64,000 nt of DNA from positions 124,001 through 188,000 of the forward strand of contig QPGO01000138.1 of assembly GCA_008632985.1 (NCBI GenBank), in the 5' to 3' direction. Of this stretch, positions 21,999 to 59,247 are shown piece after piece. This DNA is from Psammoneis japonica (taxonomy: Eukaryota). The notes beneath the pieces were generated by a model, which was not told the origin of the DNA, ran no database searches, and saw nothing but the letters and a program-made list of their open reading frames with translations. Position 1 is the stretch's first letter. Every line of letters begins with the position of its first letter. Made by a program: the position numbers and the translations under genes.

Positions 21999-23565
21999 TC
22001 ATTTTTGCTCCTCTTGTCCTGCTTTCAAAGCACTGTCCTGCCGCTTTCTCCAAAAGCCGTCCTTGTACGGGTTGTCGAAGTTCTCCAACGAGTCTGGCGG
22101 GTGATACCAATAATTCAGAGCAATGTGGCAGCCGTGGAAAGAACCAACGTCATTCTCTGTAGCTTTGCAAACATTATCGCTACTTCCACCAAATGATGTG
22201 ACCTCGTGAAACCAACCACTACAACATTCCGTTTTTAAGGATGCGTAAGTCGACAGCATCAGTGGACTATTCCCGAGCTCCGAGGCATGCAACCCAAAAC
22301 TTACCTCGGTAGATAGAGTGTCTGCCCGGCAACCAGCTCTACGACGCATTCCTTACACTTTTCGAACAATGGATAGTGCTCGATAAGTGCAGTGCGGTCT
22401 GCAGCATTGGGATCAATGCGTGAAAAACTATCCGGTCGTTTCTCGTCCTGTTGTGAATCAATGTCGTCTTGTTCTTGTTCAGCGGTTTCAGAGCCCTCCC
22501 CAACAATCTCGTCAAAATCATCGACACCCGAAGATTGGAAACACTCGCTACCCTCAGAATCACTCTTGTAGTCAAATCCCCTGCCAATAACAACCTCTTC
22601 TTCATCCGATTCTTCATCATCAGAGTCAGCGTTGTTGTTTGCCAAGCATCTCTCGCCCGACTTTGTGATTTCAAGAGGAACTCCATCCGCACGGCACTCA
22701 TTGCCCTTGTACGATATTCTTCCATTAAAGTGTACCTTTTCGATTTCTCCAAAAGTGCTCATGAAAAGAGCACAATCCGGCGAGTACAAACGAAACCGTT
22801 TTCGACCCTGCAGCAATAGATAAAAATTGTCGTGGTAGTCGTGATGCAAACCAGAGGACGTGCCTTGGCGTGTCTTACCCACCCACTTGAGTGAAGAACA
22901 GAAAGAAGAGCAAAAGCGTCATTAGAGATTTTGGAAAGAATGTCAGAACGCTATCGTAAGCGCCACTTCCATGGTATTAACATTGCTATTCAGCGACTCA
23001 CCAGGTTGCAAGCATGAAGCACCATATTGCCCGCCCATTTCAAGGAATCAGAAATTATCTTGTTTTCCACAAGTTGTCTACAAGGGACCTGAAATGGGCT
23101 AGAATCATCCTCTACATCTTGTGTAGAGAGATACAGCATTTCACCATCATCGCCATTTAGTTTCTGTACAAAATCTTGAATCGTCAAGAGACACTGTCTC
23201 GATTCCGTACGATTCTGCCCAAAATTCTCCGTGGCCAAGTAGCGCCTCTCCACCTGAACTGTCGAACTCCCAGCGGCATTCATCAAAACTTCAGAATTTA
23301 TAGTAGGGTCCTTTCCATTGGATAGTTCTGGTAAAGCATTAATGATGCACGGTCGTCTCTTGGCAACATGCTCTTGAAAGAAATCTTGGTCTGAAATAGT
23401 CGACGCATCAATGGTTGGAATCGCCGACGGCGAATCAGTAGCGTTGTTATTTTGAAGTGAGAAACCAGCATACTCCTGTCTGTCATCTTTCAAATCTATT
23501 CGAGACTTCTTTTGAGAGACTGTGACCGGGTCCTGCTCTGTTGGTCGTTTCGGCAACGACGCCAT
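21999..23565 (-). CDS. JmjC (cupin_8-like) 2-oxoglutarate/Fe(II) dioxygenase, about 3 exons
   Basis: GLHHDYHDNFYLLLQGRKRFRLYSP (HxD), AGQTLYLP/GWFHEVTS (distal His), IALNYWYHP; introns at ~22886-23001 and ~22220-22304. Confidence 0.85.
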
Positions 23566-23689
23566 GGTTGGTGGCTGTTTTTCAGTTGTTTCTGCAATCC
23601 CGCAAATCTGGAATCTCTCACGGACAGCGGACAGTGCTGGACGGTAGACGGACAGACTCAAAATTACCCAACGTGCGTGCGTGCGTGCT

Positions 23690-26600
23690 GTGGACAGAAT
23701 TTCTTTGGGCCCCAAAATGACACTCCCAAAACACTTCTCTCTCTGAAGGTTCCCCAGTGCCCAGCACAACTTGAACAATTGCTCACAGGATGGTGGTGGC
23801 TGGGTGGTGGTCACAACACTGTCACCCACGTTGGGCACTGAAAAGCTTCATCAAGAGCCCCGTGCGCGCGTGTGAGATGGCGCCAGAGACTCTCTCAAAG
23901 CACGTCCAGAGGTTTGGGGCCGTCAAAAAATAAAAATAAAAGGACTTGGCTGATTTTGAGTGGCTGGTGTTGAGCAGCTCCACCCACCATTTTGGGTGGG
24001 TGGGCAGGGAAAGGGCAAAAAATTGCCCTGTGACAGGTGTTTTGTCTGATGGATTGTCCAAATTGTGAGGCCTCTCTGGACTTGGCTTCCAAAAGTGCCA
24101 AAAAAGTTTCATGTGGGTCTTTTCTTCTAAAAAACTTGGGTGTGGACTCTGCACAGCAAGCCGCCTGCTCCAACTCACTCGAAAAAGTGTCCATTTGCGG
24201 CACTTTTTGATGTTGGACCCAGAGCATGGGTCAGAAGATGCTCTTGAGCTCACTCAGGAGATTGGCATGCAGGGGAGAGATAAAAATGCTGCAAGAAAAT
24301 GAAGCCAGTGCACCTGTCTCCAAAAGTGCTTGTGCATGTGGGAGGGAGTAGGTGGAAGCTGTTCGTGCTTTGTCCTGAGGACTCTGCTGCAAGCTGTGCC
24401 CAGGCTGCATGCTGGGCACCTCTTTGTGCTCAACATTTTGGAAAACCCCTCATGTGAAAAGCTGCACTCTGCAGACATTTCCAACAGTGCAGCTGCACAA
24501 AAAAGTCAAGAGGTGTTGAGTGGATGGCCCAACAATGCACTTGAAGCTGAGCTCCAAATGGGTCACTTGAGCTGTCATCAAGCTTTTTGGTTGTCAGGCA
24601 GCAACTGAAATGAGTGGCCAGTTGGTGCCACTGTAGATGATGGCTCTGGAGTTGGAGCACAGCTGGTGAATCTCAGTCTCACGCAGTTGTTCATGTTGCA
24701 ATCATGGGCTTTCTCAAAAAGGTGTTGCTGCGCTCTGGTTGTTTTTTTTTGTTGCACTTTTTCCATTGTTTTGCTCCACTTGTTCCCATGTGGGTGCATC
24801 AACAAACAATTGACCATGCCAGAATGACAGACTGGATGGAAGAACACAGACAATGCAGGGTGGCATCATGGTGTGGCACAACAAACAGGAAAAAAAGAAG
24901 AGCTCAAAAGGCAAAAATTTTGTTCTGTGTTTTGTGTTTTGTGAGCATCCACAACTCTGGTCTTAGACCAAAGGGGTGGCTTTCTGATTCACCTGTGTCA
25001 ACATTTGTGTGCTTCTTGAGTGGCGCACACATTGACACAATTGTGGCACAATTGTTTTGTGTTTGCACACCCAGCACTTCTAGCACCCACCAAAAACACG
25101 GTGGTGACAGCACAACATGCAAAAGAACCAGGTGTCATGAGTGTGCAAGAATTGCTGCCATGTGAAGGACACAAAAAGCACTTCAAACAAGAAGCAACCA
25201 AGAGTGTGAGATCAAGAAAGAGGTGTGCAAAGAGGGTGCAGCAATGACAAAGCACATGGAAGCCAGGCACACAAGCCATTTTCTAAGATGAGATGCAAGT
25301 CCATTGAGAAGAAACACTGGTGTGCTTCCAGAAAAGTGATTGATTGAGATCAAATGTTGGAGCCAACCCACTGATCTGTTTTGGTTGTCAAACTTGACAT
25401 TCTGCCTGTTCTCAAAATGCAGCCACTTTCATTTTATTCACTGGCTTTGTCCTCTTGGCAGCCTTCCATGGTGCTGACAAAGTTGCTGCTGGTTGTTTTG
25501 AGGTGTGCTTCTTCACTTTTCAATTTCCACTGACTTTTTTCACATTTTGCACATTCCTTGGCATGTCCAATTGCAGCAGGATGGTGGTTTGACAGAAAAC
25601 CACCAAAATCTGACACAACCATGAAATCCAGCACCATCTCATTGCAGTGTGTGACAATGCTCTCATCTTTGTCAATGATGTGGCCATTGACTCACAAACA
25701 AAAAAGTCCCATGCTGGAGATGCAGTGTTTTCTGTTGAACACCTGTGTGCTGTGTGCTGCACATTGGGTGCAACTTCTCAACCTGCAATGTCATGTGCCA
25801 TGATGCAACATGGCTTTCTGTGTGGTGACAATGTGTGCTTTTGTTTGGCAGTCAACTCACAAAAGCAAGCACAAAAACCATGCTTGAGTCCAAAACAATG
25901 GCAAATGGGTGCCTGGAAGCAACCAAAAGAAGTGTGTTGCTGTCTCTGAGAACTTGTGAGACAGTGACTGCATCCTCATTGGCTTCATGTCTCTTGTTGC
26001 AAGCACAGGCGTGAGAAACAAGTTGTGCCATGTTTGTGGGCTTTGCTGCACCTGCTCTTGCAGTCAACTGCTTCTGGCTGATTGTGCACAAGAGCAGAAG
26101 AACACTTGCCCCACCAGACACAAATGTTCAAGGATGGCATCAAACTTTTTTCAGTCCAAGAGGAGAGTTGGCATTTTATTGTGGAGCCCACATTGGCAGA
26201 GTTCATTGCAGTGGATTTTGCCGGAGAACCATTTTGTCAGTCACTTTGCTGCTGTGACAAGCTTTCAAGAGAGAAACGTGACAGCCATGTTGACCACCAC
26301 AAAAAGAGGTGCAAAAAATGCCACCGGAAACAATGCATCTTCAATCTGTCAGCAAAAGTGAGGACAAAAACTGGTGCCTGGGCTGTTAAAAAGCCATTGG
26401 ACAATGGCAAAACAGAAAAATGATTGATTGGATCAACAAACTTGGTGTTTCAGAAGATGGGATCTGTGTCAAGTTCAAAGGTTTTTGCAAGAATTTTTGT
26501 GCATGCTTTGAAGAAAGCAGAGACCAATGATGTCAATGGAGAGTTTTTGCTGGGCTCTCATCACAAACTTTGTGCACAATGACGGAGGCCATTTTACAAA

Positions 26601-27620
26601 GAAATTCATGGTGGCCAATGCTCCAAAGGCTGTTGTTGTTCCACAAAGGAGTTTCTGGAGCTTGGAGAGCTGCAGCTGTTTTGTTGTGGTGCTCTCAGAA
26701 ATTGAGAGAGTGTCGATGATGTGGGGGCATCACATCAATGTGTTGAAGCCATTGTGGCTGCAATGAAAGAAAATGGGCCAAATGTCACCTGCAAGAAGAC
26801 ATGGCCATTTTTCTTGAAAGGGCATTTTCACAACCCAACGACATGGCCTCCAACAAGCCACTGGCTTTGGCCAATCCTGTGATTGCTGCTGTGAAAAAGC
26901 ACAATGACAACAAATCACTTGTTGAGTGTGGTGTTTGGCTCCTCATCAAACTTGCAGCTTCTAACAATGAAACAAAGGAGGAGATCATGGAACAGGGTGA
27001 CAGTGATGCAGCTGTGGCAGCTGAATGCAAGCAGAGTGCAAGCAGCACAATGAAACAATGAGAACATCCATCAGAAGGCTCTTGCCTTGTTGGAATGCCT
27101 CTGTCCTTCAGAAATGTCTGTTTGTCAGATCTCCATTTCAACAAAGTGTGTGTTTTTGAATGAACACAGATGGTTTCCTCTGTTGCAACACCACCTTGCC
27201 CATTGCATGCTGCAGCTTTTGCATGCTTCTCTCCAGCACAATGCAAAACACATGGTGGCATTTCTCAGAATTAAAGCCTTGCAGGAGACTCAGTGCCATT
27301 CATTGTGCTTGGTTCCATTGTTGCAAGGCCGACAGTTTCATTGTGCGGACATTGCACTTCATCCATCTCCTGTGGTCAAAGCCAAGGATTGAATGATGCC
27401 CTGCAACAACCTTCCCTGCAGTCTTCTTTGCCAGCAAGTGGGAAAATGCATGCCCAGCAGAAACAAGCTCTGTTCTGTTCCATTGACTGGTGTCTGTGGC
27501 TGCCCAAGGTCTGCACCAGTCCTCATGGCCAGCAGAAAACGCACCACCGGCAGTGCTGCAGCTGACGGCAGCTTGTCTGATCCGTTCCTCCTCGGCCATT
27601 TGTTGCTTTGCCAGGACGGC
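23690..27620. other. TpA/CpG-depleted hypermutated domain 2
   Basis: TA and CG nearly absent, TG/CA-rich, only fragmentary Cys/His/Gln-rich ORFs. Confidence 0.88.
26801..27061 (+). pseudogene. Relic of an ARM/HEAT-repeat protein
   Basis: VIAAVKKHNDNKSLVECGVWLLIKLAASNNETKEEIMEQG resembles one armadillo-type repeat. Confidence 0.4.
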
Positions 27621-27994
27621 TAATGTTCAAAATCTGAGTTGTTGCAAGATTAAAACATGCTCAGTTTTAACCTTGAATCTGTTTTGTTCTTGCAATGCTA
27701 AGTGCACTATAAAACTAGACGGCTCCCAACAAGAAAGCGACAGCGGCCAGAAATCCAGGCAAACGGCCGTCCAGGGCGGACAGCAAATCTGATCCGTTCC
27801 TCCACGGCCATTTGTTTGCTAGGACGGCTAACGTTCAAAATCTGAGTTGTTGCAAGATTAAAATATACTTAGTTTTAACCTTGAATCTGTTTTGTTCTTG
27901 CAATGCTAAGTGAACTATAAAACTAGACGGCTCCCAACAAGAAAGCGACAGCGGCACCAGAAAACCAGGCAAACGGCCGTCCAGGGCGGACAGC
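27576..27994. repeat. 212-bp tandem duplication of the 3' end/3' UTR of the FAD oxidase gene (27576-27784, 27788-27994)
   Basis: Near-identical units starting tctgatccgttcctcc and ending ccagggcggacagc. Confidence 0.95.
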
Positions 27995-30324
27995 GGCGGA
28001 GGGGGGTGAAGTGGTTGGCGCCTCCGTGCTTGACGCGGGCGTAGATTTGTCATGTTCCTTAAAGCCCACGCAACCATAGCAATTAAACATATGCTCCGGA
28101 TCCGCCGCTGCCTTGATGGCCTCCAACCGGGCAAGGCCCTCGGTACCAAAAATAAACTCCAGTTTGGAAATGCACATTTCGTCACGTTCGCTTCGGCGGC
28201 CAATGGGGCAAGGCACAGACCAGTTCGTCTTGAGGGGGCCCATGTTCAACTCTTGCATGTGATTGAATTCACCCATGGGCGGGAAGGAGTCTTGGGGAGT
28301 GCCATCGCCCACATAGGCCATGAGCAAGTTGGTCTTCAAGTCGTCGCCGCCGAGGATACCGAGACTAGAAAAAAACGCCGATCCGCGGTACGCCCGACTC
28401 GTTGCGGTGGTCCCATCGTGATGCGTGGCATGGTTGCCGCCAATCGTGTAGGGAGGAATGTCAAACAAAACCGATCGTCCCTCCTCCGAATTGACATAAT
28501 CAATCGGAGTGTGAATCGCCATTCCGGCAAAGTTCCGAATCAACATGGGGGTTTCTTGGTCTGCAATTCTTCCCGAGGGTACCCCAGGGAATTCGCCGAG
28601 ACTCAGCGCCAATTCGGCATAGTCCTTGTTGGTGGCCTTGAGAACGATCGACGCGCGAATCATATCCACCAATTCATCCGTAAATCCAGCCTCCAAGAAA
28701 TAGTCGCGGTTGCTCTCAACGACGGCGGCATATGCAGAAGAAAAGAGTTGGCCGCCCTCTCCAAAGCAAAAGAATTCATTGAAGACCCCTTGACAAAGAT
28801 TGCTCTGCTCCACAGTCAAGTTTACCGCGGTGGGATTATAGTACGCGTCCAGTCGAAAGTTGCCATTGACCCAAGCGAGCGCTGCGGTTTGGTTATCACA
28901 TGACGACCCACAAAGTGCAGCCAATTCTTCTTCAAACCCATCGGGATTTTCTAATTTCAACTGGCTAATCTCTCCTGGCCAATCGGGCAATTGATACTCT
29001 ACCGAAAGGACAACACCAAAGCCGCCGCCTCCGCCCCGCACGGCATGCCACAAGTCGTCAAAGGAAACACCAATCCCGGCATTGTCGGGACAAACTTGCC
29101 ATTGCCAATCTTCTTCGGGTGAGGAAGGATTCGTATTGCACCATCCAGTCACTTTTGTGGTGCGAGGCCAGGCAAGCGTGTCGTCGTCGGTCCACTCGGT
29201 CGGACCGAAACGAACATGATGTCCCGTGGGCAAGACCATTTCCATTTGCGTGACTTGATCGACACCAAAGCCAAAGAGGCGGCCACCGTTGGTGGCTGCA
29301 ATTCCCGTGGCTGACAACCACCCACCCGCGGCACCCACCGTTCCAGAACCACCACCCAACATGTGGTAGGTCCAATTTCCGTCCTTATCCGCGCTGCGGA
29401 TTCGATTAAAGTTCGACACGGATCGGTATGCCTCGTCAAACAGGGTTCCTCCACCCACGCGCATTATGGCACTCCAACCACGAGACGTAGCCACGCGGCA
29501 GGCCTGGGCACGCAAATCGGCCGTGGTCAAATTTACGCCCTCTTCCTTCACTCTACTCGTAGGGCTTGTTTGCGGGTTGCCCTGCAAAATGTCAGGGCAT
29601 TCCGTCAAGAATCCACCCTCCACCAAATACTTGGGGTACTGACGCATATTGATCAGGATGGAATCCTTGTCGGTGTGACTGCCCGTATAGCTGTGTCCCG
29701 TCGCCTTGACGCTCATACCGACATGGTTTTTTAATGCAAACTCCACGGCAGCCACCACATCACCTGCCGTGCGAGGATGAACCACGGCCGCGGGCAAATT
29801 CCAGTCCTCGTCGGGAACAGCCTCGGGCTCAAATGGGAGATTCTCGGGCCATGGCGTGGTAGAAAGGAGATCGTAAAGGTTGGTGGGGGACCAGTCGCAG
29901 TATCGCCATGCGCAAGCCTTGTGAGAGAAATGAAGAACAATGTTGCAAATGATTAGAGCAAGACTCTTTTTATCATAACACACAGTACAGTAGTAAGCAT
30001 CATAGCGTGACACAACAATAAACTTACAAAAGCATAAGAGCACAAACCGGCCGGTTGATCTACCAATTGATAATTGGACCCCTCTGCCAAACGTCCCGCC
30101 GGACCAAACGCAAAGCGAAAGTCTTCGGCCGCAAAAACGGGGGAGCATTGTTCCAACCATTGCGCATTGTCCGTATCATTAAATACAAACGTCAGAGACG
30201 TTTGGGACGTCAAGGACGAACGGAGTGAGGCCCAATCGAGAGTTTCAAGGTCGGGGTCGTGTCCCTCGGCGACGGAAGCAATCGTCCCAGCGGAAAAGAA
30301 TAGCAACCAAGAAAAGACACGCAT
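27923..30324 (-). CDS. Secreted FAD-linked oxidase, berberine-bridge-enzyme-like; intron 29918-30027
   Basis: Signal peptide MRVFSWLLFFSAG; PAAVVHPRTAGDVVAAVEFA..VKATGHSYTG; GTVGAAGGWL; AVRGGGGGFGVV; C-terminal RLEAIKAAADPEHMF; Ser/Thr/Pro spacer plus hydrophobic tail. Confidence 0.88.
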
Positions 30325-31849
30325 CCTGCTGATTCCCGTTAATGATGATGATGATGATGATCGCCTTCTTTCATCAACGTTGCTCTTCTTGTGAGAAGAG
30401 TGAGAGTGCAAAGAAGAGCAACGCATCAACATCAATCTGTCAATCCAGATGCACAACCAAAGATCTAATACATAATCTTCTTCAATTTCGAATACATAAG
30501 CATCATTGCATGCAGCATTGGTCGTTTCTTTTTTGGCGAATCGGCAGCTGGCGGTGTTGACGTGGCATCAGGTCGCTCAAAGATACTGTGTAATAAAAAC
30601 ATCAGAGCAGAAGAATGCTACCGTACGGTATGCATCGCATCGTCGGTTTTTTTTTGGCAACCTGCAACAACCTGGAAAAAAATCGCTGGCCCCACTGGCA
30701 TTTGAGGGTGCAAGCAAGAAGAATCATCGCAGTGGCAGTCTGTCTGTACGATGGTTTCTACGCATATTTTGTACTTTCGTCCGTCCCTACCACCTCCAGC
30801 CCGATTCCGACCAACCCGATTCGGGCAGATGGCAGGTCGGACGATAGTACAAATTATGCATAGAATCCATCGTACAGACAGACCGCGCTGCGATTCTTTC
30901 TATGTATCTACTTTCTATCTCCTGCCTTGCTCGCATTGCAAGTGGCGACACGCGACACCCAACTTGCTGGCGGGCGCGTTCCGACGGTCTGACTGCATGT
31001 CCAGTGATGGGTTGCTCGTCGCACAGCCCTCTTTTTACGGCATCATGTGTCCAGTCACGCAGCTCAGGGTTGAAAAGAAGAAGAGGAAAAGGGTGAGGAG
31101 GAGAAGGAGGGAAAGGAGGAGAGGAGAGGGGCTGTGGGCACAATTTGGGGGCCCCCGCTTTCCCCCACAAATTTTTGCACTTGCCTTGTTGAAGTTGGCT
31201 GTCAATGAGCCGAACTTGAAAGTGCCAGCAACAGTGTCCAACAAAATGCACTTGTTTTGTGTGTTTCTTCTGATCATGTCTCACCAGCTTTTCTGACACA
31301 AGCTTCACTCAAACACGTGCAATGTTCAACTTGAGACAATTTTGGGGGGTGTTGGCGCCTTTTTTTTGTTGCACAGTTTGTTTTCTTCCTTTTGATGGTG
31401 GTCAGCTGAGCTTGGTTTCAACTTCATTCTCCCCACTCATGTGTGTGTGTCCTTGCATGTGTGCAGTCCACCTCATGTGCACACACTCTCCCACCCTCAT
31501 TTCAAATTTTTCCTTGTGCTTTCCCCCAGACTTGCGCAGCCCATTCTTGGTGTCCGCAGTGTTCTCAGCTTTTTTTTGCATGCACAATTTTCTGCACACT
31601 TCATAAAAGTGCCCTCTCCCCAAACATTAAAAAGCAAAGGTTTGCACTGTTGTGACTCCTGTGTGCTCCACATGTTGTTGCAAATTTGCAAATTGACAAC
31701 CTGCCAGGGCAGAGAAAGACTTTGCCCCATTGGCCGATGACAGCAGCTCAGTGCATGGTGAGAGCTGCTGTCCTTCTGGTTGGTCAAGATGGGTTGTGAT
31801 TGGGACATCTCTTCAATTTTGTGGTTGCAAGTGTGCTGTCATAAATCTG

Positions 31850-36566: not shown

Positions 36567-36792
36567 GAACTCAATCAATCAACCCAAAAATGACAAATGG
36601 GTGATCTGCTTCACTTTTGATTTTGACCACAGCTGCACATGTGGCATGTCCATCTGGTTTACATTCTGACAGACTGGAACTCAGTCAATCAACCCAAAAA
36701 TGACAAATGGATGATCTGCTTCACTTTTGATTTTGACCACAGCTGCACATGTGACACATCCATCTGGTTTACATTCTGACAGACTGGAACTC
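36567..36792. repeat. 110-bp tandem duplication
   Basis: Two near-identical units aactca-tcaatcaacccaaaaatgacaaatgg...acagactggaactc. Confidence 0.92.
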
Positions 36793-37918
36793 TGTCCAGT
36801 CCAACAAATGTGGCAATTCATGTTGCATCTGAGCTGTGCTTTTTTTCCTGAATCTCATTTGAGCTGGAGATTCAAATGCGTGTGCATCTCTTTTTTGTTG
36901 TTGATTTTTTTCAGGCTCGCAGATTTCCAGAAATGAGGCGCCACTCTCTGGTTGCACTCATTGGCTGCATCTTTCCATGATTTCCTTTTGTGGGGCAACA
37001 GCAAAATGATGTTCTCTGTCACCACTCCCAACTGATGGCATCATTCTTGGACCTCTCAGATTCATTGTGGTGGTCAAGACATGCTTTGTCCTTGGGGATG
37101 ACTTTTTTTTACACTCAACACAGGTGATTGACAAGCAACAGAAATGCTGAATGCTTTTTCTGGTGGTTTGCCTTTGAAGAGTGCCAGTGTGTGCTGGCAT
37201 CTAGTTTGAGATGCATGGCAGAGTTAGATTTTGATTAAAATGACACAAACAAGGGCAAACTCAGGCAGAACAAATCTGCTGCCTCACTGGTTGCCTTCTC
37301 AAAGATGCCAGGAAACTGAAGCACAAACATCCTTCACCCCCACGTGATGGCATTTGCAATGACCTTGGTGATGACAGCAGCCTCTTGTTGCTTGCACCAG
37401 TGGCAGGTGCTTTTTGAGAATCCACCAGGCCAAAAATGTCCTGGTCTTCTTTGCTGTGCAATGCAAGCAACTCTTCTGTGCTGTGAGTGGGTGATGTCTT
37501 GTGGCTGGAAGGGGCAGGAGGAGCAGGTGGGAGAGTGGCTCACAGCTCTGGGCTCATGGTTGCTTGTGTGTTTTCTTGACAATGTGACAAATCATGTTGG
37601 AGGGAGCCACAGTCAAAGTCCTGCCAGAGCAGGTGGGGGATTGCACGGGTTGTGGGCACTCATCACTTGCCAGGCACCCTGCAAAGAAGCAAAGCGCCCA
37701 GCCAGCAGGGCATGGTTTTCATGGGGTGCCTTCTGCCTGGCATTGCTTTTTTTGCCTGTGGACACAAATGCATGTTTTGTTGTCCTGGCACCTCAGCCAA
37801 AACAATTGCCATGTCTTCATCATCTCCTTGGGGGAAACTCACCCCCATTCTTTCTGAGATGAAGTGAGATCCATCGATTTGGATGCAGCAGATGAGCTTG
37901 GCTGAGCTTGAGTGTTGG

Positions 37919-38112
37919 TGACAGAATGCCGAAGGTCAACAGTGACAGAGGTGTGAAAGACTCCCCAAAGCACCAGGACTGTGACAACACGAGTGCCAGC
38001 AGATGAGAAAGTGAGAAGCAGATCTCAGAGAGATCTGCTCATCTGTCCAAATGGTCCAGCCATCATCCGCATCCAGTCTGTCCATCCTGCGACAGGTGTA
38101 GACAGGCTGACA
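37919..38112 (-). repeat. LTR A (194 bp), preceded on the minus strand by PPT GATCAGGGGAGGG (38113-38125)
   Basis: Aligns with 38263-38456 and 48304-48497. Confidence 0.9.
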
Positions 38113-38262
38113 CCCTCCCCTGATCTGTGACATCTCAACATAGAGAACAGTGCAGATCAAACCAAAGAACAGGGATGATGTGAGGAAAAAAAACAGAGAG
38201 ACTGGACATGGGACACAATGAGTGTCCATGCCCAATGCGCCATCAAACAAGGGCTCACAACC

Positions 38263-38456
38263 TGACAGAATGCTGAAGGTCGACAGTGACAGAGGCATGA
38301 AAGACTCCCCAAAGCACCAGGACTGTGACAACACGAGCACCAGCAGATGAGAAAGCGAGAAGCAGATCTCAGAGAGATCTGCTCATCTGTCTAAATGGTC
38401 CAGCCATCATCCGCATCCAGTCTGTCCATCCTGCGATGGGTGCAGACAGGCTGACA
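38263..38456 (-). repeat. LTR B (194 bp) with PBS-like GGTTGTGAGCCC (38251-38262) and PPT (38457-38469)
   Basis: Direct repeat of LTR A. Confidence 0.9.
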
Positions 38457-38761
38457 CCCTCCCCTGATCTGCAATGTCTCAACACAGCGAATGGTGCAGA
38501 TCAAACCAAAGAATGGGGATGATGTGAGGAAAAAAAACAGAGAGACTGGACACAGGACACAACAAGTGTCCATGCCCAATGCGCCATCAAACAAGGGGGG
38601 CAATGCGCAGCAGGGAGGCCAAGCTTTCTGTTTCGATTCATTTGTTTTGTGAGCCGATCAAGCGAGCCTCATCGTCTGATCCGACAACTTTTTGTCTCGC
38701 TTTCCCGGCATTTTTCACGACCGTAGAAACATGCCAGATTTCTGCGCGTGCATGACCAAAA

Positions 38762-40813
38762 ATGGCTCCACCCACTAAAACCATGGCGTCTCCCGACCTT
38801 ACAAAAGCCGCTCCCACGTCAACTGCAGAGATCCACTGCGAATTTGAGGCACATGCAACAATGCCACATCTACATCAGTGTCTGAGTGCGGTTTGTGCGG
38901 ACTCCATAACTGATCTTGATCGATTTTTTGACGATCCAGAGCACACGCAACCCAAGAATGATTTTGCGGACATGCTCCGCGATTGTTTCATCCACGAAGC
39001 GTTTCCACCTTACACAGCTGATCCCACGGATATAGAATCAATCAAGACGATTATGGATCAAGCCCCGTTCAGACTTCTTGACCCTCAAAGGCCTCGTCCA
39101 GTCCACCTGACGACTCCGATCTCATCAAAGATGATCAAGACGAATCTTCAGAATGGTGAACAATCTCTGTTCATTGCCACATCTACCCAACACATGCATG
39201 TTCATCCGGACATGCCACGGAACTATCGCAATTGGAGCGAGTTCTCTCTTATGCCCCACCAGAAGAAACAGCAGCCTCCGTCTTCTTCTCAGAAACCTGC
39301 AGGACCTGCTACATTGACTGTGGCTGACTTAGTCACTGCACTCAATGCACACGCGTCGAGCCATGCTCCGCCTTCTACAGCTTCTGCTGAGACATCTGGA
39401 AGTGCTGCATCCTCCATGACATCGAAGTGCCTCTTCAATCCAAACACACTTCCTCCAGATGTTCACGCACGCTGTGACCGCAAAGAAGATGGAAAAGTCA
39501 CTCTTCAGAGCTCTCTCGTCCCTTACGACCATGGATTCCGTCACTGTGTTGATGCATCCGATCGCATCATCCTCAACGATGGCACCCTTTTCATCATGAG
39601 CTCGACTCCTGATCAGAAAATGCTGTTCAGGGAACCTCCTGCATGTCATGACGACTCCCCCCCTGGGATGCGAGCATGGTGCCAAAATTTCCAACGTCAT
39701 GCCTTTGATTCAGGTTGCCACACACATCCATTGTGGTGTTTTGCCAAGGACCACGGTGGTGAGAAAGGTTTCGAGATTGGAAACGGCAAAGATGACGACT
39801 TGCCCCAGCGTGTGTACATCCACTGCAAGGAAGCCCAGAGCTCTCTCCACAAGATCCTGTCCAAGTCGGACATGTTCCCCAAGAACAGCAAGCATCATCC
39901 GATTGTTGCATCATGCTGCGGTGACGGATGCAAGGCTCTCAAGCAGATCATCTACGAGAATCACCCTGCTTTTGACCATGATGCTGCAGGACTAGTTGAT
40001 TCCCATCCTGCCCAAGGCAATCGATCTTTGACGGACTGCCACATGATTTTCAATGATTTCCTGCAGCTGCGTGCATGCATCTTTGATGCGGACTCTACGT
40101 TGAGTGATCCACGGGAGATGACTGTCTTTGTCAAGAACAGCAAGTGCACCAAGTTCTCATCTCGTGCTGCCAGAGATGAACGGAAGTCTCCAGCTGTGCA
40201 GAAGAAGTGCACCGATGCACAGATTGTCGAGACTCTCTCTGATTTCCTCCGCCAACCAGATGGTCCATCCATTGACACCCGTGCAACACCAAGCATTTCC
40301 TGCCGTAAATGGAATCGTGCCAATTGGGAAACACGATGCACGACTGTTGATGTCAATGCTCTCCAGGTCCCCGAGATCCCTCCACTTGAACCAGTCGATG
40401 ACTCTGCTGTTGAAGATGCTGGTGCGGAATCTCTCTCTTCGGATGCCTTCGACACTCTTTGCGACGAGTTGCATGGACTTGAGTTCCCCTCCACGGATGA
40501 AGATCGACTCCTTCACCATGTCCACTCGGCTTCAGTTTATGGGCTGAAAGTTGCTCCGACTGAAGCTTCCAAGAAACCGTGTCTCGTCTGCTCCGGTGAA
40601 CACTTGTTTGACGACTGTCAAGTCTTGAAGAACAATCCGTACATCAAGGGATTCCATGTCCGCTTTTGCCAATTCTTGAAGAGGGAGGCAGCCATGCGTG
40701 CTTCTGAGTTCCAAGGACCCCAAGGCCTGCTCCCCCCTCATCATGAAAACCCTGAAAATTCGACTAAATCTGGTGCTCCGCCTTCGGATTTTCAATCGGG
40801 CCATCGCAGCTAG
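38762..40813 (+). mobile_element. Copia gag ORF, copy 1 (683 aa, open but mutated)
   Basis: Zn knuckle CLVCSGEHLFDDC; homologous to 46076-48125. Confidence 0.85.
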
Positions 40814-42890
40814 TTTCGGATCTCCGACGCTGCCCGTTTTCTCCTCACCGAGATGTGACGAATGTCAGCGGGATGACCTTGAAAGAGGGACTAACCGTCT
40901 CGTCATCTGCCGCTGAAGTGCCTCTTTCTCCGCAGATTGACATGGATGCCACCCCTGCCACTGCCAAGAAGGCATCATTCGACACCAGTGAATTGCCAGA
41001 CGATGACCCTGCTCCTCAAGAAGACACCGTCGATGCTGCTCCCACTCCGGATCCTTTGGAACAGGGGAGGGAAGCCTCAGAAACACCGGATTTCGAGGAA
41101 TGCATTGATCTCACCTACGATGACATGGCCATTGAAGATGGTTTTGCTGCAGTCAATTCTGTTCAAGTTGCTCCGATTGATCCATGCCAAGCGACTCACT
41201 CTCCTGCACCAGAACCAATGTGCTCTACTTGCTCTGTCCATGGGGTCAATTTTGCTCCGAATGAACGTTGCGCTCAACTCGACACAGGTGCTGACATTGC
41301 GTGCACAGGTGACCGTGACCTCCTCCATCGATGCCAAGAATTCACTCCGTCTCATCCCTGTCCCCTTGCTGTCAATCCCACCCTTGGCCATCACGCTGTC
41401 CCAGTTGGTTTCGGATGCCTGCGGATTCCTGCAGAGAACTCTGCCGGATGTGTTGAGGTTCGCACATGCTGTCACCCGCAGATCCAATCTATGTTGGTCG
41501 ATGAGCGACTGCTGCTCCATCAAAATGGTGCTCGTCGCGCAGATTGCAATGTCAATTGTGTTCTCAAGTTCCATGATCTCGGCACCTGCAAGTTTGTTGC
41601 ACGACACCGATTGCGCAAGAGTTAGGATGTCATTGTTCATGGGAAATTGATCAATGGAAAATGTTTCACTCACCCTCTCATTCTCCCGGAATCTAACGAC
41701 GAACTGGATGCATCTGTCAAGCGCCTCAAGACTGGTGATCCTTCTTTTGCCAATGAGTGTGAAGCGGTCTCTGCGCACATGATTGAGACTTGTCGTACCC
41801 ACCAACATGAAGCTCTTTGTCATGAACGCAAGTTGATCCCCCGTGTCTGTCAAGACATTCCTTTCGAGAAGCATGCTGAGAAGAATGTTCCTGTCCAGTC
41901 TCTCAAGGCCGACACGGAACGTCTTTTGTGGCATCAGCGACTTGGTCATCCGAGTGATCACTGCCTTTGTGGTGCCCACAAACACGTTGACGGCGTCCCC
42001 AAGTTTGCTCACGGAACCTCTCCCCTCGACACTTGTCCTGCATGTGTACAAGCAAAGCAGACGAAGGAACCTGCCAGTCCGAACACTGCTCTCACTGCCA
42101 CCCAACCCCGCCAAGGCCTTGCGATTGATTTTTCCTTCTCTGGCCTGCCCTCCAAGAACTCGGAGCGCACCAAGGACTGTGTTGGATTGAGTGGCGAGAC
42201 TTGTTGGATTGCTGTTTACGATCATAAAACAAAGCGTCTCCATGGTGCGACTCGTGTCTCCAGAGGAAACCCCTTTGACTTGGCTTCGCCACTTTCTGGA
42301 AGAGCACTCGCCAAAATGTCCAGACAAACATGCATTCATGGATCAAGGAGGTGAATTGCATCAAAACCCAGAAGTTCAACGACTCTTTGAGGATGACTTT
42401 CATCATGCAATTCGTCCTGCGGGAAAAGATGCTTCAAATCAGAATGGCCCAGTGGAACGCAGTCATTTGTCTGTTGCCAACGCCATCCGGGCGATGCTCA
42501 TCGGTGCCGATTTGCCCACAAAATTCTGGCCCTGTGCTTTTCATCATTTCATTCGAATCAACAACACTGTGCCATCCCGCGGACAACCTGCTGCTCCGAT
42601 TGCTCTCGCCACTGGTTGGAAGGATGATTTCAAGAACTTTCGCATGTTTGGTTGTCGAGTGTGGGTGCGTGCATCGAATCACCACCCCGCAAAATTTCGG
42701 TCCGTCTCTTGCAAGGGAATGTTCTCAGGCCATCTTCTGGACACCACCAAGAACATCCCATGGTGTGATCCTGAGACATCGCGTGTCAAGCTTGCCAAAC
42801 ACATCCACTGTGATGAGGGCATGAATGATCTTCCCCACGACGCTCTTCCGCCGAATGCAGTTCACTTGGAACGTGCTCAAGATGGCAACA
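40786..42890 (+). mobile_element. Copia pol 5' half (protease, GAG-pre-integrase, integrase), degenerate and truncated
   Basis: AQLDTGAD protease; LWHQRLGHP..CPACVQAK; IDFSF, DQGGEL, QNGPVERSH, FWPCAF, FGCRVWV. Confidence 0.88.
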
Positions 42891-42925: not shown

Positions 42926-43066
42926 GCCAGGACTGTGACAACACGAGCACCAGCAGATGAGAAAGTGAGAAGCAGATCTCAGAGAGATCTGCTTGTCCAT
43001 CTAAATGGTCTGGCCATCATCCACATCCAGTCTGTCCATCCTGCAACAGGTGCAGATGGGCTGACA
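42926..43066 (-). repeat. Partial LTR C abutting an inverted LTR end (~42888-42922)
   Basis: Matches LTR A/B/D; PPT at 43067-43079. Confidence 0.85.
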
Positions 43067-43246
43067 CCCTCCCCTGATCTGCAATGTCTCAACATAGAGA
43101 ACAGTGCAGATCAAACCAAAGAACAGGGATGATGTGAGGAAAAAAGACAGAGAGACCAGACACAGGACACAACAAGTGTCCATGCCCAATGCGCCATCAA
43201 ACAAGGGGGCAACACGCAGCAGGGAGGCCACCGCGGAAAAAAAATG

Positions 43247-45895: not shown

Positions 45896-46075
45896 CCGTG
45901 GCAGTGTCGAATGATGCCTTCTTGGCAGTGGCAGGGGTGGTGTCCACATCAATCTGCGGAGAAAGAGGCATTTCAGCGGCAGATGACGAGACGGTTAGTC
46001 CCTCTTTCAAGGTCATCCCGCTGACATTCGTCATGTCTCGGTGAGGGGAAAACGGGCAGCGTCGGAGATCCGAAA

Positions 46076-48125
46076 CTAGCTGTGACGGCCCGATTGAAAA
46101 TCCGAAGGCGGAGCACCAGATTTAGTCGAATTTTCAGGGTTTTCATGATGGGGGGGAGCAGGCCTTGGGGTCCTTGGAACTCAGAAGCATGCACAGCTGC
46201 CTCCCTCTTCAAGAATTGGCAAAAGCGGACATGGAATCCCTTGATGTGCAGATTGTTCTCAAGACTGGACAGTCGTCAAATGAGTGTTCACCGGAGCAGA
46301 CGAGACACGGTTTCTTGGAAGCTTCAGTCAGAGTGACTTTCAGCTCACAAACTGAAGCCGAGTGGACATGGTGAAGGAGTCGATCTTCGTCCGTGGAGGG
46401 GAACTCAAGTCCATGTAACTCGTCGCAAAGAGTGTCGAAGGCATCCGAAGAGAGAGATTCTGCACCAGCATCTTCAACAGCAGAGTCATCGACTGGTTCA
46501 AGTGGAGGGATCTCGGGGACCTGGAGAGCATTGACATCAACAGTCGTGCGTCGTGTTTCCTCATTGGCACGATTCCATTTACGGCAGGGATTGGATGGTG
46601 TCGTACGGGTGTCAATGGATGGACCATCTGGTTGGCGGAGGAAATCAGAGAGAGTCTCGACAATCTGTGCATCGGCGCACTTCTTCTGCACAGCTGGAGA
46701 CTTCCGTTCATCTCTGGTGGCACGAGATAAGAACTTGGAGTGCTCAGTGTTCTTGACAAAGATGGTCATCTCCCGTGGATCACTCAACGTAGAGTCCACA
46801 TCAAAGATGCATGCACGCAGCTGCAGGAAATCATTGAAAATCATGTGGTGGTCCGTCAAAGATCGATTGCCTTGGGCAGGATGGGAATCAACTAGTCCTG
46901 CAGCATCATGGTCAAAAGCAGGGTGATTCTCGCAGACAATCTGCTTGAGAGCCTTGCACCCGTTGCCGCAGCATGATGCAACAATCCGATGACACTTGCT
47001 GTTCTTGGGGAACATGTCTGACTTGGATGGGATCTTGTGGAGAGAGCTCTGGGCTTCCTTGCAGTGGACGTACATGCGCTGGGGTAAGTCATCATCTTTG
47101 CCATTTCCAATCTTGAAACCTTTCTCACCACCGTGGTCCTTGGCAAAACACCACAATGGAAACATGCAGCAACCTGAATCAAAGGCATGACGTTGGAAAT
47201 TTTGGCACCATGCTTGCATCCCAGGGGGAGAGTCGTCATGACACACAGGAGGTTCCCTGAACAGCATTTTCTGATCAGGAGTCGAGCTCATGATGAAAAG
47301 GGTGCCATTGTCAAGGATGATGCGATCGGGTGCATCAACACAGTGATGGAATCCATGGTCGCAAGGGACGAGAGAGCTCTGAAGAGTGACTTTTCCATCT
47401 TCTTTGCAGTCGTAGCGTGCACGAACATCTGGAGGAAGTGTGTTCGGATTGAAGAGGTATTTCGATGTCACGGAGGATGCAGCACTTCCAGACGTCTCAG
47501 CAGAAGCTGCAGAAGGCGGAGCATGGCTCTACGCGCATGCATTGAGTGCAGTGACTGAGTCAGTCACAGTCAATGTAGCAGGTCCTGTGGGTTTCTGAGA
47601 AGAAGACGGAGGCTGCTGTTTCTTCTGGCAGGGCACAAGACAGAACTCGTTCAAATTGCGATAGTTCCACAGCATGTCTGGATCAACATGCACATGTTGG
47701 GCAGATGTGGCAATGAACAGAGATTGTCCACCATTCTGAAGATTCGTCTTGATCATCTTTGATGAGATCGGAGTCGTCAGGCGGACTGGACGAGGCCTTT
47801 GAGGGTCAAGAAGTCTGAACAGGGCTTGATCCATAATCGTCTTGATTGATTCCATGTCCGTGGGATCAGCTGTGCAAGGTGGAAACGCTTCGTGGATGAA
47901 ACAATCGCGGAGCATGTCCGCAAAATCATTCTTGGGTTGCGTGTGCTCTGGATCGTCAAAAAATTGATCAAGATCAGTTGTGGAGTCCGCACAAACCGTG
48001 TTCAGACACTGATGTAGATGTGGTGTTGTTGTGTGTGCCTCAAATTCGCAGCAGATCTCTGCAATTGACGCAGGAGCGGCTTTTGCAAGGTCGGGAGACG
48101 CCATGGTTTTAGTGGGTGGAGCCAT
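46076..48125 (-). mobile_element. Copia gag, copy 2 (frameshifted); protease and integrase deleted at ~45895
   Basis: Translation nearly co-linear with 38762-40813. Confidence 0.88.
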
Positions 48126-48303
48126 TTTTGGTCATGCACGCGCAGAAATCTGGTGTGTTTCTACGGTCGTGAAAAATGCCAGGAAAGCGAGACAAAAAGT
48201 TGTCGGATCAGATGATGAGGCTCGCTCGATCGGCTCACAAAACAAATGAATCGAAACAGAGGGCTTGGCGCAGAGGTCTGTGGCACAGCGCATGGCTACA
48301 ACC

Positions 48304-55441: not shown

Positions 55442-55809
55442 GAGTAGGTGGTACAGTATGTATATTTGCTTCCTGTTCCTTTCCTCCCCTCAAACGAGCT
55501 TGTTGGCGGCTGCGTCGATGTTCGAAGATGCAACCGCCGACGACCAAATTAAAATGCGTGGCGTGTGTTGCGCTTATTGTGCGGCGGCCGCAGACCCCAG
55601 TACGATTTGTACGTGGAAAAAGCGCGGGAAATCTGCTTGCAGTGGCTGACGTCACGAAATCACTGAGGCATGCTCTCCTATTTCGCATAAACACGAGCTT
55701 GCAACACTGTTTGCTGGAGCTGCCGGTAAACGTGTTTTCGTTGGAATCAGCTCGAGCTACCTCTCCCTTTCTGCATGAGCTCTCTAGAGAGACAGACCAG
55801 CAAGTAGAT

Positions 55810-56333
55810 TCATGAAAGAACACTCTCTGCCAGAGAGTGGCTCTGCTGCAGGTGAACTTTCAGGCCTGCTCTGTGCTGTGTGCTCCCCCACTGTGGCTGT
55901 GCCACCTGCCTGCTGGCTGGCAGGAGCGAACAAGTTCTTGAAAACAGATTCAGATCTCTGTGCCACTCATTGGTCATGTGCACATGGTGACTGTGCCTTT
56001 CATTTGTTGTTGTGTTGAAAACGTCAACGAAAGTGGGCTTGTCCTCTCCTCCTCTGAACTCAACGCAGCAGCCTCTCGCTTCTTGTCTCGAAAAGCTGTG
56101 CATCGCCCTCCAATGTGATGAACAAACAGGCCAAGTCAAAGTGACCCAAAAAGCCATCATGAGCCACACGGGGGCATGGCAGTGAGGCAAATGCCGGTGT
56201 GCTCACAAAAAGGTTCCAGCAAAGAACCAAGGCGCCACTCCACTGGCAGAGCAGCTGCTGTGGCTGAAAGCTGAGGAGACGCGAGTGGACAGCCCAGAGT
56301 GGAGTGAGAGATGCATCATCTCTCCTGCAGAGC
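55810..56333. other. Small TpA-free island (domain 4)
   Basis: No TA seen by eye in ~525 bp; some CG retained. Confidence 0.8.
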
Positions 56334-56816
56334 ATAGACAGATTATCTAGCTAGACAGCCACCGGTAGACAGGCAGACAGACAGCTGCGGTAGATAGATG
56401 GGCGGGGCCATGCATGCGTGCCGCGCATAGACGCAACCTGTTTCGCGCTGCGCGGCTGAATTGCTGTGACACCTCCACAGCCAGAATTTTTTTACCACGA
56501 CATAACCACGGCCGCTAGCGACATCCTCTTTTTGATGTTACCACTGTTCAACAAGAAGCTTGCTCTCGCCGACACCACTTGCGCTCTTGACAATAGAAAC
56601 TAAGAGATTTTTATCGGGTAAGTCACACCCTTTATCGTGCGCTTTCCACGGGCTCAGGAAGTATCGGCACTAACCCATTTTTTTCTCTTCAGCTCTTATT
56701 ACGGCTCGACCCATCCCAACCTACCCGAAGACGTGTATCTCCATTACCGTCAACAGGAGCCCGTCACCACTGGCGCCTCTATCAGTTCTGGGCTTGCTAT
56801 ACCTGCTGTAGTGACC

Positions 56817-58460: not shown

Positions 58461-59247
58461 TCAAAATAGCCAACAACGGACGCAAAAAAAATTGAATCCA
58501 ATGTATTCAAAATTGCATGTGGGTCCCGGTGGCACACAAGAGTTCTCAACAAGGTGCCCACACACCACATCTCTCATGTTGTTGTTGCTTGCATTGCCAC
58601 TTCCATAACATGGCCTTCTTTTGCTGGCACACGGCAGATGCAAGGGTGGAGCCGCACACCTTTGCAATGGTTCCTCTGGGGATCTCGCTTGCATTTTGGG
58701 AGACGATGCCGTGGGCGATTCTTCTGTCATCACTGCAACAGGTAGAGGAAGGAGAGGTCAATCAAAAGCGCCAGTGGTGACGGGCTCCTTTTGACGGTAA
58801 TTGAGATACACATCTTCGAGTAGGGTGTGATGGGTCGAGCCGCAATGGGAGCTGAAGAGGAAAAAATGGGTTGGTGCCGATGATTCCTGAGCCCGTGGAA
58901 AGCGCACGATAAAGGATATGACTTACCAAAAATAAAGCTCTTAGCATCTGTTGTTAAGAGCGCAAGTGGTGTCGGGGAGAGTAACCTTCTTGTTGAACAG
59001 CGGTGATATCAAAAGAGGAGGTCGTCAGAGGCCGTGGTTTTGTCGTGGTAAAAAAATTCTGGCTCCGGAGGGTCACAGCAATTCAGCGTCCGGGTTCCGT
59101 CTATGCCGCATGCCAGTAGACAATGGTATAAAGCTCGCCACCCTATTTCGCATCAACCACCGACACAACATCACGATGGCACGATCACCCCGTTTGTGTG
59201 AAAGTCCTTTTCTTGAACAAATCTACCTGGCAGGGCACTGCGACAAG

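Follow-up and report, generated by a model that had tools for sequence, protein, structure and literature searches.

Asymmetric TpA loss in a tandem duplicate at the edge of a TpA-depleted domain in a probable diatom genome

Results

Organisation of the locus

The locus lies in a window of 64,000 nucleotides (contig QPGO01000138.1), which denotes here the whole stretch of DNA that was analysed, and comprises the 3' end of an oxidoreductase gene, a tandem duplicate of that end and a neighbouring domain purged of TpA (TA) and poor in CpG (CG). The features referred to below are as follows:

23498..27620: neighbouring TA-purged domain (HMM on TA), with a CG-poor core at 23922-27539
27576..27784: domain-side (left) copy of the duplicate, containing C-terminal codons, stop and 3' flank of the gene; dead (Tandem Repeats Finder and alignment)
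27612..27663: class changes in the left copy, namely TA>CA at 27612, CG>TG at 27624, TA>CA at 27656, TA>TG at 27659 and TA>CA at 27662
27664..27708: putative outer limit of TA loss (change-point fit with context-specific rates)
27788..27994: gene-side (right) copy, containing the last 24 codons, the TAG stop at 27923-27925 and ~135 bp of 3' flank (alignment)
27923..30474, minus strand: gene for a FAD-binding oxidoreductase (PF01565) with a hydrophobic C-terminal tail and a provisional 5' limit

The stop codon at 27923-27925 ends the true C-terminus of the oxidoreductase, since homologous proteins have this hydrophobic tail at their ends as well. The one homologue match that names an organism is from Thalassiosira, which is the direct support for the probable diatom origin. 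An intron of this gene (29917-30026) is skipped by a contig from sequencing run X2, which stops at 28008.

Tandem Repeats Finder reported a two-copy array at 27576-27994 (period 208, 2.0 copies, 93% match), and pairwise alignment of the two copies revealed eight substitutions and two indels of 4 and 2 bp, respectively. The 2-bp deletion frameshifts the left copy, the minus-strand translation of which leaves the frame after AW. All five transitions are located at unit positions 37-87 of 208, and each represents TA or CG in the gene-side copy and CA or TG in the domain-side copy. Four of these are TA to CA/TG changes and one is a CG to TG change, all on the domain side, exactly as the first-pass annotation of this DNA had described, and the gene-side copy, which that annotation described as looking untouched, retains 11 TA and 10 CG dinucleotides with 0/11 TA lost. 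The remaining three substitutions, absent from that annotation, are transversions (27592, 27705 and 27754). Site 27612 adjoins the 4-bp indel and vanishes in a less parsimonious two-gap alignment (judged by eye). The changed bases had been taken to be host-gene DNA, a description that does not apply: the five sites lie 53-103 nt past the stop codon and the duplicated codons are without such change, so that the altered DNA is non-coding 3' flank of the dead copy. A DNA search of the genome assembly (G000) yielded no second locus for the duplicated unit, and an exact 30-base pattern, used to find an outgroup for the duplicated flank, gave 0 matches in metagenome contigs.

The core of the adjacent domain (23922-27539) exhibits an observed/expected ratio (o/e) of 0.06 for TA and 0.09 for CG, the latter demonstrating that CpG depletion over repeat-rich blocks is present. 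For ordinary DNA of the window (intergenic stretches included), the corresponding TA and CG values are 0.54 and 0.98, for the purged window blocks (three window domains) 0.05 and 0.15, and for a Copia-containing block at 38.8-48.9 kb 0.13 and 0.70. The adjacent domain consists of degraded DNA, with dispersed-repeat pieces near 25560-25860. No close paralogue of it was found in G000, among whose sequences 17 weak matches (best, 73% over ~230 bp) were identified, nearly all of them TA-poor. Four ORFs of the domain were without a Pfam match, as were a 66-aa remnant and eight ORFs from three of the 17 related loci, and the domain is a degraded repeat region.

The 66-aa remnant (26840-27037) represents host-like coding DNA within the purged domain and looks armadillo-like; its only relative found, a weak one, is located at G000:C2:941865-942041 (E 7.7e-4). 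At its other edge (23498-23921), the domain includes the first codons of a minus-strand cupin-like gene (start near 23565) together with its upstream sequence; this segment contains 2 TA in 424 bp with a CG o/e of 0.71, and TA loss here extends ~420 bp beyond the CG edge. Elsewhere in the window, a 529-bp island (55806-56334) with TA and CG o/e values of 0.0 and 0.32, respectively, is located amid ordinary DNA.

The account that we favour, and consider probable, is that a domain-addressed TpA mutator hit the displaced flank copy because of its position. By itself, the focal pair is suggestive of such a dependence on domain position. Under context-blind transitions, five of five transitions falling in the TA/CG class with one polarity corresponds to p ~0.0012 (two-sided), and at least four of five in the TA class to p ~0.0016. 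One-sidedness alone is weaker (5:0, binomial p 0.06; 5/21 versus 0/21, Fisher p 0.048). The concentration of changes in the proximal half, also pointed out in the first-pass annotation, is borne out by the unit positions of the sites, but is statistically weak (p 0.19 for TA only; p 0.035 for TA and CG, with a post hoc split). The pair offers five informative sites, one of them alignment-dependent; these are too few to carry the interpretation, and 864 kb of the same genome was therefore surveyed.

Direction and chemistry of the change

The surveyed sample, composed of five contigs of G000 and representing <1% of the genome, was partitioned with a two-state HMM, by which 42% of the 864 kb was assigned as TA-purged. 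From 148 repeat pairs found, 46 non-redundant pairs with ≥85% identity were classed. In the six pairs with one copy inside and one outside a domain, TA was kept outside and lost inside 133 times and the reverse was observed 0 times, counts that are partly circular, since the domains were called from TA density, and that derive from sites clustered in ~20 loci. At the 287 sites with TA in the outside copy, the inside copy carried CA/TG in 235 cases, TA in 47 and another dinucleotide in five, whereas the equivalent comparison between outside copies (n=1118) gave 219, 690 and 209, respectively. A restriction of A:T>G:C transitions to TpA is borne out by these 235/287 survey sites and by the focal pair, in which 4/5 transitions are of this kind.

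Triplets in which two outside copies agree allowed the changes to be polarised (sites fall in six bins and are not independent): TA>CA/TG was scored in 22/28 cases and CA/TG>TA in 2/111, compared with 18/140 and 42/1285, respectively, for a third outside copy as background. The direction of change is TA to CA/TG, in agreement with the polarity originally proposed for the domain-side copy. CG loss in the same triplets amounted to 10/63 inside and 74/414 outside and is not raised, which shows TA loss to be the fast process. In young elements, depletion of TA is ahead of that of CG (o/e 0.13 versus 0.70).

Regarding the underlying chemistry, we see about an even chance that TpA is altered by deamination of adenine to inosine, catalysed by a TadA/ADAT-like enzyme. 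TadA-8e editors are described as favouring a TAC motif in RNA off-targets (PMC9126838). G000 contains nine matches to the deaminase family PF00383, as putative candidates, and 27 matches to PF00145. An adjacent pair of deaminase domains was observed twice in this assembly (G000:C41:505477-506590 and G000:C317:55748-56795), with one identical score, representing either a duplicated locus or an unmerged haplotype.

An alternative for the chemical step only, which retains the same position dependence, is that T is the targeted base, through thymine oxidation or through T:G-type error-prone repair linked to 5mC. TpA is palindromic, so that A>G on one strand and T>C on the other leave an identical record in the sequence, and the coincidence of TA and CG loss in old domains is in keeping with such a process. 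Against it, CG loss lags behind TA loss in young elements and stops short of it at domain edges, and no Tet_JBP match was found in G000, a weak negative given that the control was silent (0/14 genomes). We regard targeting of T as unlikely, if a serious contender to deamination of adenine.

Sequence context and the edge of TA loss

When the target is read as A, losses were observed at 88/148 TAC, 73/142 TAT, 34/114 TAG and 32/138 TAA sites. In terms of four-base contexts, CTAA/TTAG and TTAA lose half of their sites and ATAT, ATAC and ATAG nearly all. The proximal half of the left copy lost 4/7 TA, with 4.8 losses expected at in-domain exposure, and the three sites that escaped all belong to the slowest contexts (CTAA, TTAA and TTAA). 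The distal half lost 0/4, with 3.2 expected (P 1.7e-4), although three of these sites are in fast contexts.

Equal exposure of both copies is rejected: its lnL was -10.3, compared with -6.9 for uniform exposure of the left copy, -4.5 for a decay and -2.5 for a sharp edge, the last two fits having one extra parameter and the decay fit lying at the grid limit. The fits favour a sharp edge over a decaying gradient, but do not settle the choice. Of the spreading from the chromatin domain that the first-pass annotation had favoured, the effect of position stands, whereas a gradient is disfavoured by 2 lnL units. The best-fitting change point is at ~27665, positions up to ~27700 being within 1.5 lnL units. 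A smooth gradient outside domain edges was not seen in the survey, where loss was 0.26, 0.27, 0.32 and 0.18 at 0-100, 100-300, 300-1000 and >1000 bp, respectively, from TA-defined edges, with few loci in the near bins.

At the focal locus, the TA edge as fitted lies 125 bp outside the CG edge, which is at 27540. Among 69 filtered domain edges of the survey, the TA edge lay beyond the CG edge in 50 cases, with a median offset of 129 bp, compared with a median of 8 bp and 58% positive offsets in a common-edge simulation. This offset may represent a fixed halo, or slower CG loss after a recent outward movement of the domain.

The gene-side copy has its TA, indicating that the sites were intact at duplication, although this flank was then nearest to the repeat-derived block. 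This would mean either that the working 3' flank was shielded, by transcription or selection, or that the block arrived later. The same retention, fastest contexts included, is what would be expected if domains had no reach at all and any untranscribed or unselected DNA were hit, the edge then marking the end of the transcript or of purifying selection, 215-260 bp past the stop codon; at the other edge, TA loss continues through the sequence upstream of the cupin gene as far as the start of that gene, which also fits. Such an explanation is nonetheless improbable, as ordinary window DNA, including intergenic stretches, retains TA at the o/e of 0.54 given above, redundant tandem copies far from domains retain TA (see below), and the offset between the fitted edge and the CG edge is near the survey median. 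Within the favoured account of a domain-addressed mutator, distance may not be the sole reason why the gene-side copy is spared; transcription or selection may also contribute, and shielding by the gene is retained as one of the possible elements of this account.

Position versus duplication

Nine tandem pairs located >500 bp from domains (pairs of 92-444 bp) displayed 13 TA-class differences versus 12.9 expected from their other transitions, and retained 56 shared TA; this far class is survivor-biased, in that duplicates that were fully purged would be classed as domains. Position rather than duplication matters, because these far tandem pairs are without a TA excess. Eight within-domain tandem pairs had 2 shared TA and 26 CA/TG swaps, a swap being one ancestral TA or CG with a different outcome in the two copies. 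In the far pairs, CG-class differences numbered 28 versus 14.2 expected, i.e. twice expectation, for which reason the focal CG>TG change, listed as evidence in the first-pass annotation, is not diagnostic.

Several other duplicates in the window bear records of their own. A 344-bp tandem pair within a domain (37919-38597, with a third copy at ~42927-43230) carries nine CA/TG double swaps and six TA/CG-class changes among 25 substituted bases, and documents much more strongly that the two copies were resolved independently. A 110-bp within-domain tandem pair (36567-36796) shows one TG/CA swap and three other transitions. Inverted copies (94%) in the Copia block (38618-40985 and 45904-48269) have lost TA reciprocally 13 and 6 times, with 31 swaps. 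In an inverted duplicate at 56455-56814 and 58730-59087 (85%, 24 transversions), the copy 120 bp from the small 529-bp island retains more TA (9 versus 4), the opposite of the focal pattern.

Repeat-induced point mutation of the fungal type (RIP) has the context CpA>TpA and is premeiotic in timing. In Neurospora crassa, it is a C>T process triggered by duplication anywhere in the genome and proceeds through RID and DIM-2 pathways (10.1101/2021.04.05.438447). In an equivalent process at the present locus, a mutator that hits one copy or the flank would be recruited when the two copies pair with each other, or when the old repeat pairs with related sequences. The asymmetry of the focal pair, from which spreading had been preferred over RIP-like pairing, cannot on its own exclude a pairing trigger, because DIM-2-dependent RIP is reported to mutate flanks and not repeats, one pathway preferring adjacent non-repeated DNA, while RID-type RIP spreads ~150 bp from inverted repeats (10.1101/2021.04.05.438447). 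Furthermore, a relationship to RID is possible for the DNMT4 of diatoms (PMC9998398), G000 has the 27 PF00145 matches mentioned above and the domains contain repeat-derived DNA. Shared with RIP are dinucleotide-specific transitions that destroy repeats and extend a short way into the DNA alongside.

The preference for spreading over RIP-like pairing is supported as far as the dependence on position goes. Unlike RIP, the process is position-set, with far duplicates left untouched (13 versus 12.9 in the short, survivor-biased pairs), and, unlike RID-pathway RIP, it hits one copy (5:0 in the focal pair; 133:0 for homologous inside/outside pairs, in which TA loss is confined to the inside copy). 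The changes also run in the reverse chemical direction to RIP, being A:T>G:C at TpA with the TA-creating direction in only 2/111 cases, and the model in which both copies are equally exposed fits worst. The process is not fungal RIP, and a homology-triggered mechanism of a RIP-like kind appears very doubtful.

Integrity of the duplicate and polarity of its differences

Three runs of one sample were mapped on 23000-31500; the assembly may derive from one of them, X1. X1 depth summed over the two bins of the copies was 124, near the ~114 expected for both copies and not the 72 expected for one, a result that bears on copy number and not on the five sites themselves. The X1 contig of the gene begins at 27948 and shows a variant at base 31, which would be the mark of a graph branch caused by the second copy, and X1 contigs in the domain are TA-poor like the window. 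On the other side, at least seven single-base X1 insertions are listed in the domain between 25280 and 27224, and X1 may carry the left copy without its 2-bp deletion. Taken together, we consider it highly improbable that the duplicate or its differences represent assembly or base-calling consensus errors.

Although no close paralogue of it was found in G000, the domain differs from X1 at 24 positions over 2054 bp, compared with 5 over 3504 bp in the flanking genes, which counts in favour of the domain-addressed account; this comparison left out one 334-bp contig (29 differences, 11 gaps) overlapping a better-matching contig. The 32 X1 differences listed in the domain comprise 15 of the TA, CG or CA-TG-swap class and 17 others, which weighs against that account. 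Many insertions of 1-2 bases in X1 relative to the window were observed across 25280-27224, with none listed in the flanking genes, reflecting either haplotype decay or assembly consensus errors.

C>T transitions are common generally, and the five sites are without a direct outgroup, yet it is just as implausible that the left copy is ancestral and that the TA sites of the gene-side copy arose through C>T changes at CpA/TpG, the direction of fungal RIP, as the pattern has p ~0.001 under context-blind transitions, the working copy would have had to mutate while the frameshifted copy stayed still, and the polarised survey direction is TA loss.

Discussion

In the mechanism that we propose, a local duplication would have copied the 3' end of the oxidoreductase gene into the gap between that gene and an old repeat-derived block. 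In marked chromosomal domains of this genome, TpA is converted to TpG/CpA by A:T>G:C change at A on either strand, with TAC and TAT favoured. The mutator would act by position, covering the CG-depleted core, which is presumably methylated, and reaching ~100-150 bp beyond it. The near half of the new copy would have been hit at about full in-domain strength, and its far half and the gene's own copy would have been spared. Of these elements, the data show the changes and their direction, the dependence on position, the context preference and the location of the TA edge beyond that of CG, whereas the chromatin state of the domains, the earlier shielding of the sites or late arrival of the domain, and the adenine chemistry are inferred.

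The domains would correspond to heterochromatin with CG methylation, by analogy with the DNMT5 system of diatoms. In Phaeodactylum tricornutum, CG methylation of transposons is DNMT5-dependent (PMC9998398). Methylation of this type would account for the conversion of CpG to TpG/CpA in these domains, which is best read as 5mC deamination on the strength of that analogy, and the same system may supply a candidate chromatin address in the form of H3K9me2/3 and H3K27me3 regions (PMC9998398). TpA loss, which here proceeds faster and reaches farther than CpG loss, is not accounted for by this system.

Among the literature searched, only one preprint describes a process that fits. In Bigelowiella natans, a rhizarian, TpA-specific hypermutation of integrated viral DNA was reported, with two viral regions and 124 clusters from which TpA is partly lost (Rho 0.45) (Mettrop et al., bioRxiv 10.64898/2026.01.13.699255). 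The rate was obtained from mutation-accumulation lines, with an ~1000-fold raised de novo rate in some lines only, and an ADAT-type (ADAT2-like) deaminase was proposed, but is unproven there (10.64898/2026.01.13.699255). The process described here resembles that of B. natans in its TpA>TpG/CpA change on both strands, in its regional nature and in TpA-poor, CpA/TpG-rich clusters tied to foreign DNA; it likewise acts on a single-copy region and is found in discrete regions rich in mobile DNA (HMM domains, Copia and dispersed repeats). It differs in its host, a probable diatom, in its extent (42% of 864 kb, with o/e values mostly of 0.02-0.1), in its association with retrotransposons and degraded repeats, in the joint loss of CpG and in its sharp edges, as well as in the spill into host-derived flank and the TAC/TAT preference. 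CpG, diatoms, boundaries, flanks and trinucleotides are absent from the main text of the preprint, the supplements of which may bear on context. No diatom report of a TpA-loss process was found in the literature searched, the coverage of which excludes subscription journals.

Tentatively, and with more doubt than conviction, we put forward that this diatom possesses an undescribed, heterochromatin-tethered DNA adenine deaminase with TAC/TAT preference, in effect a natural base editor of adenine, which would have rewritten ~40% of the genome with a reach of about one nucleosome repeat past the CG-methylated core while being kept off transcribed genes, and that the duplicate would record both this reach, of ~125 bp, and a loss of protection once a 3' flank is moved away from its gene.

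The duplicate is a small witness of five sites, and the weight of the argument derives from the 864-kb survey. TpA hypermutation, described so far for a rhizarian in a single preprint, is thereby extended to another lineage, a distant one, in which its scale is far greater. Targeting by position, an edge ~130 bp outside the CpG-poor core and the TAC/TAT preference represent testable properties that are new relative to the main text of that preprint, and these properties narrow the search for the enzyme and for its chromatin address. A natural editor of adenine in double-stranded DNA, if true, would constitute new biochemistry.
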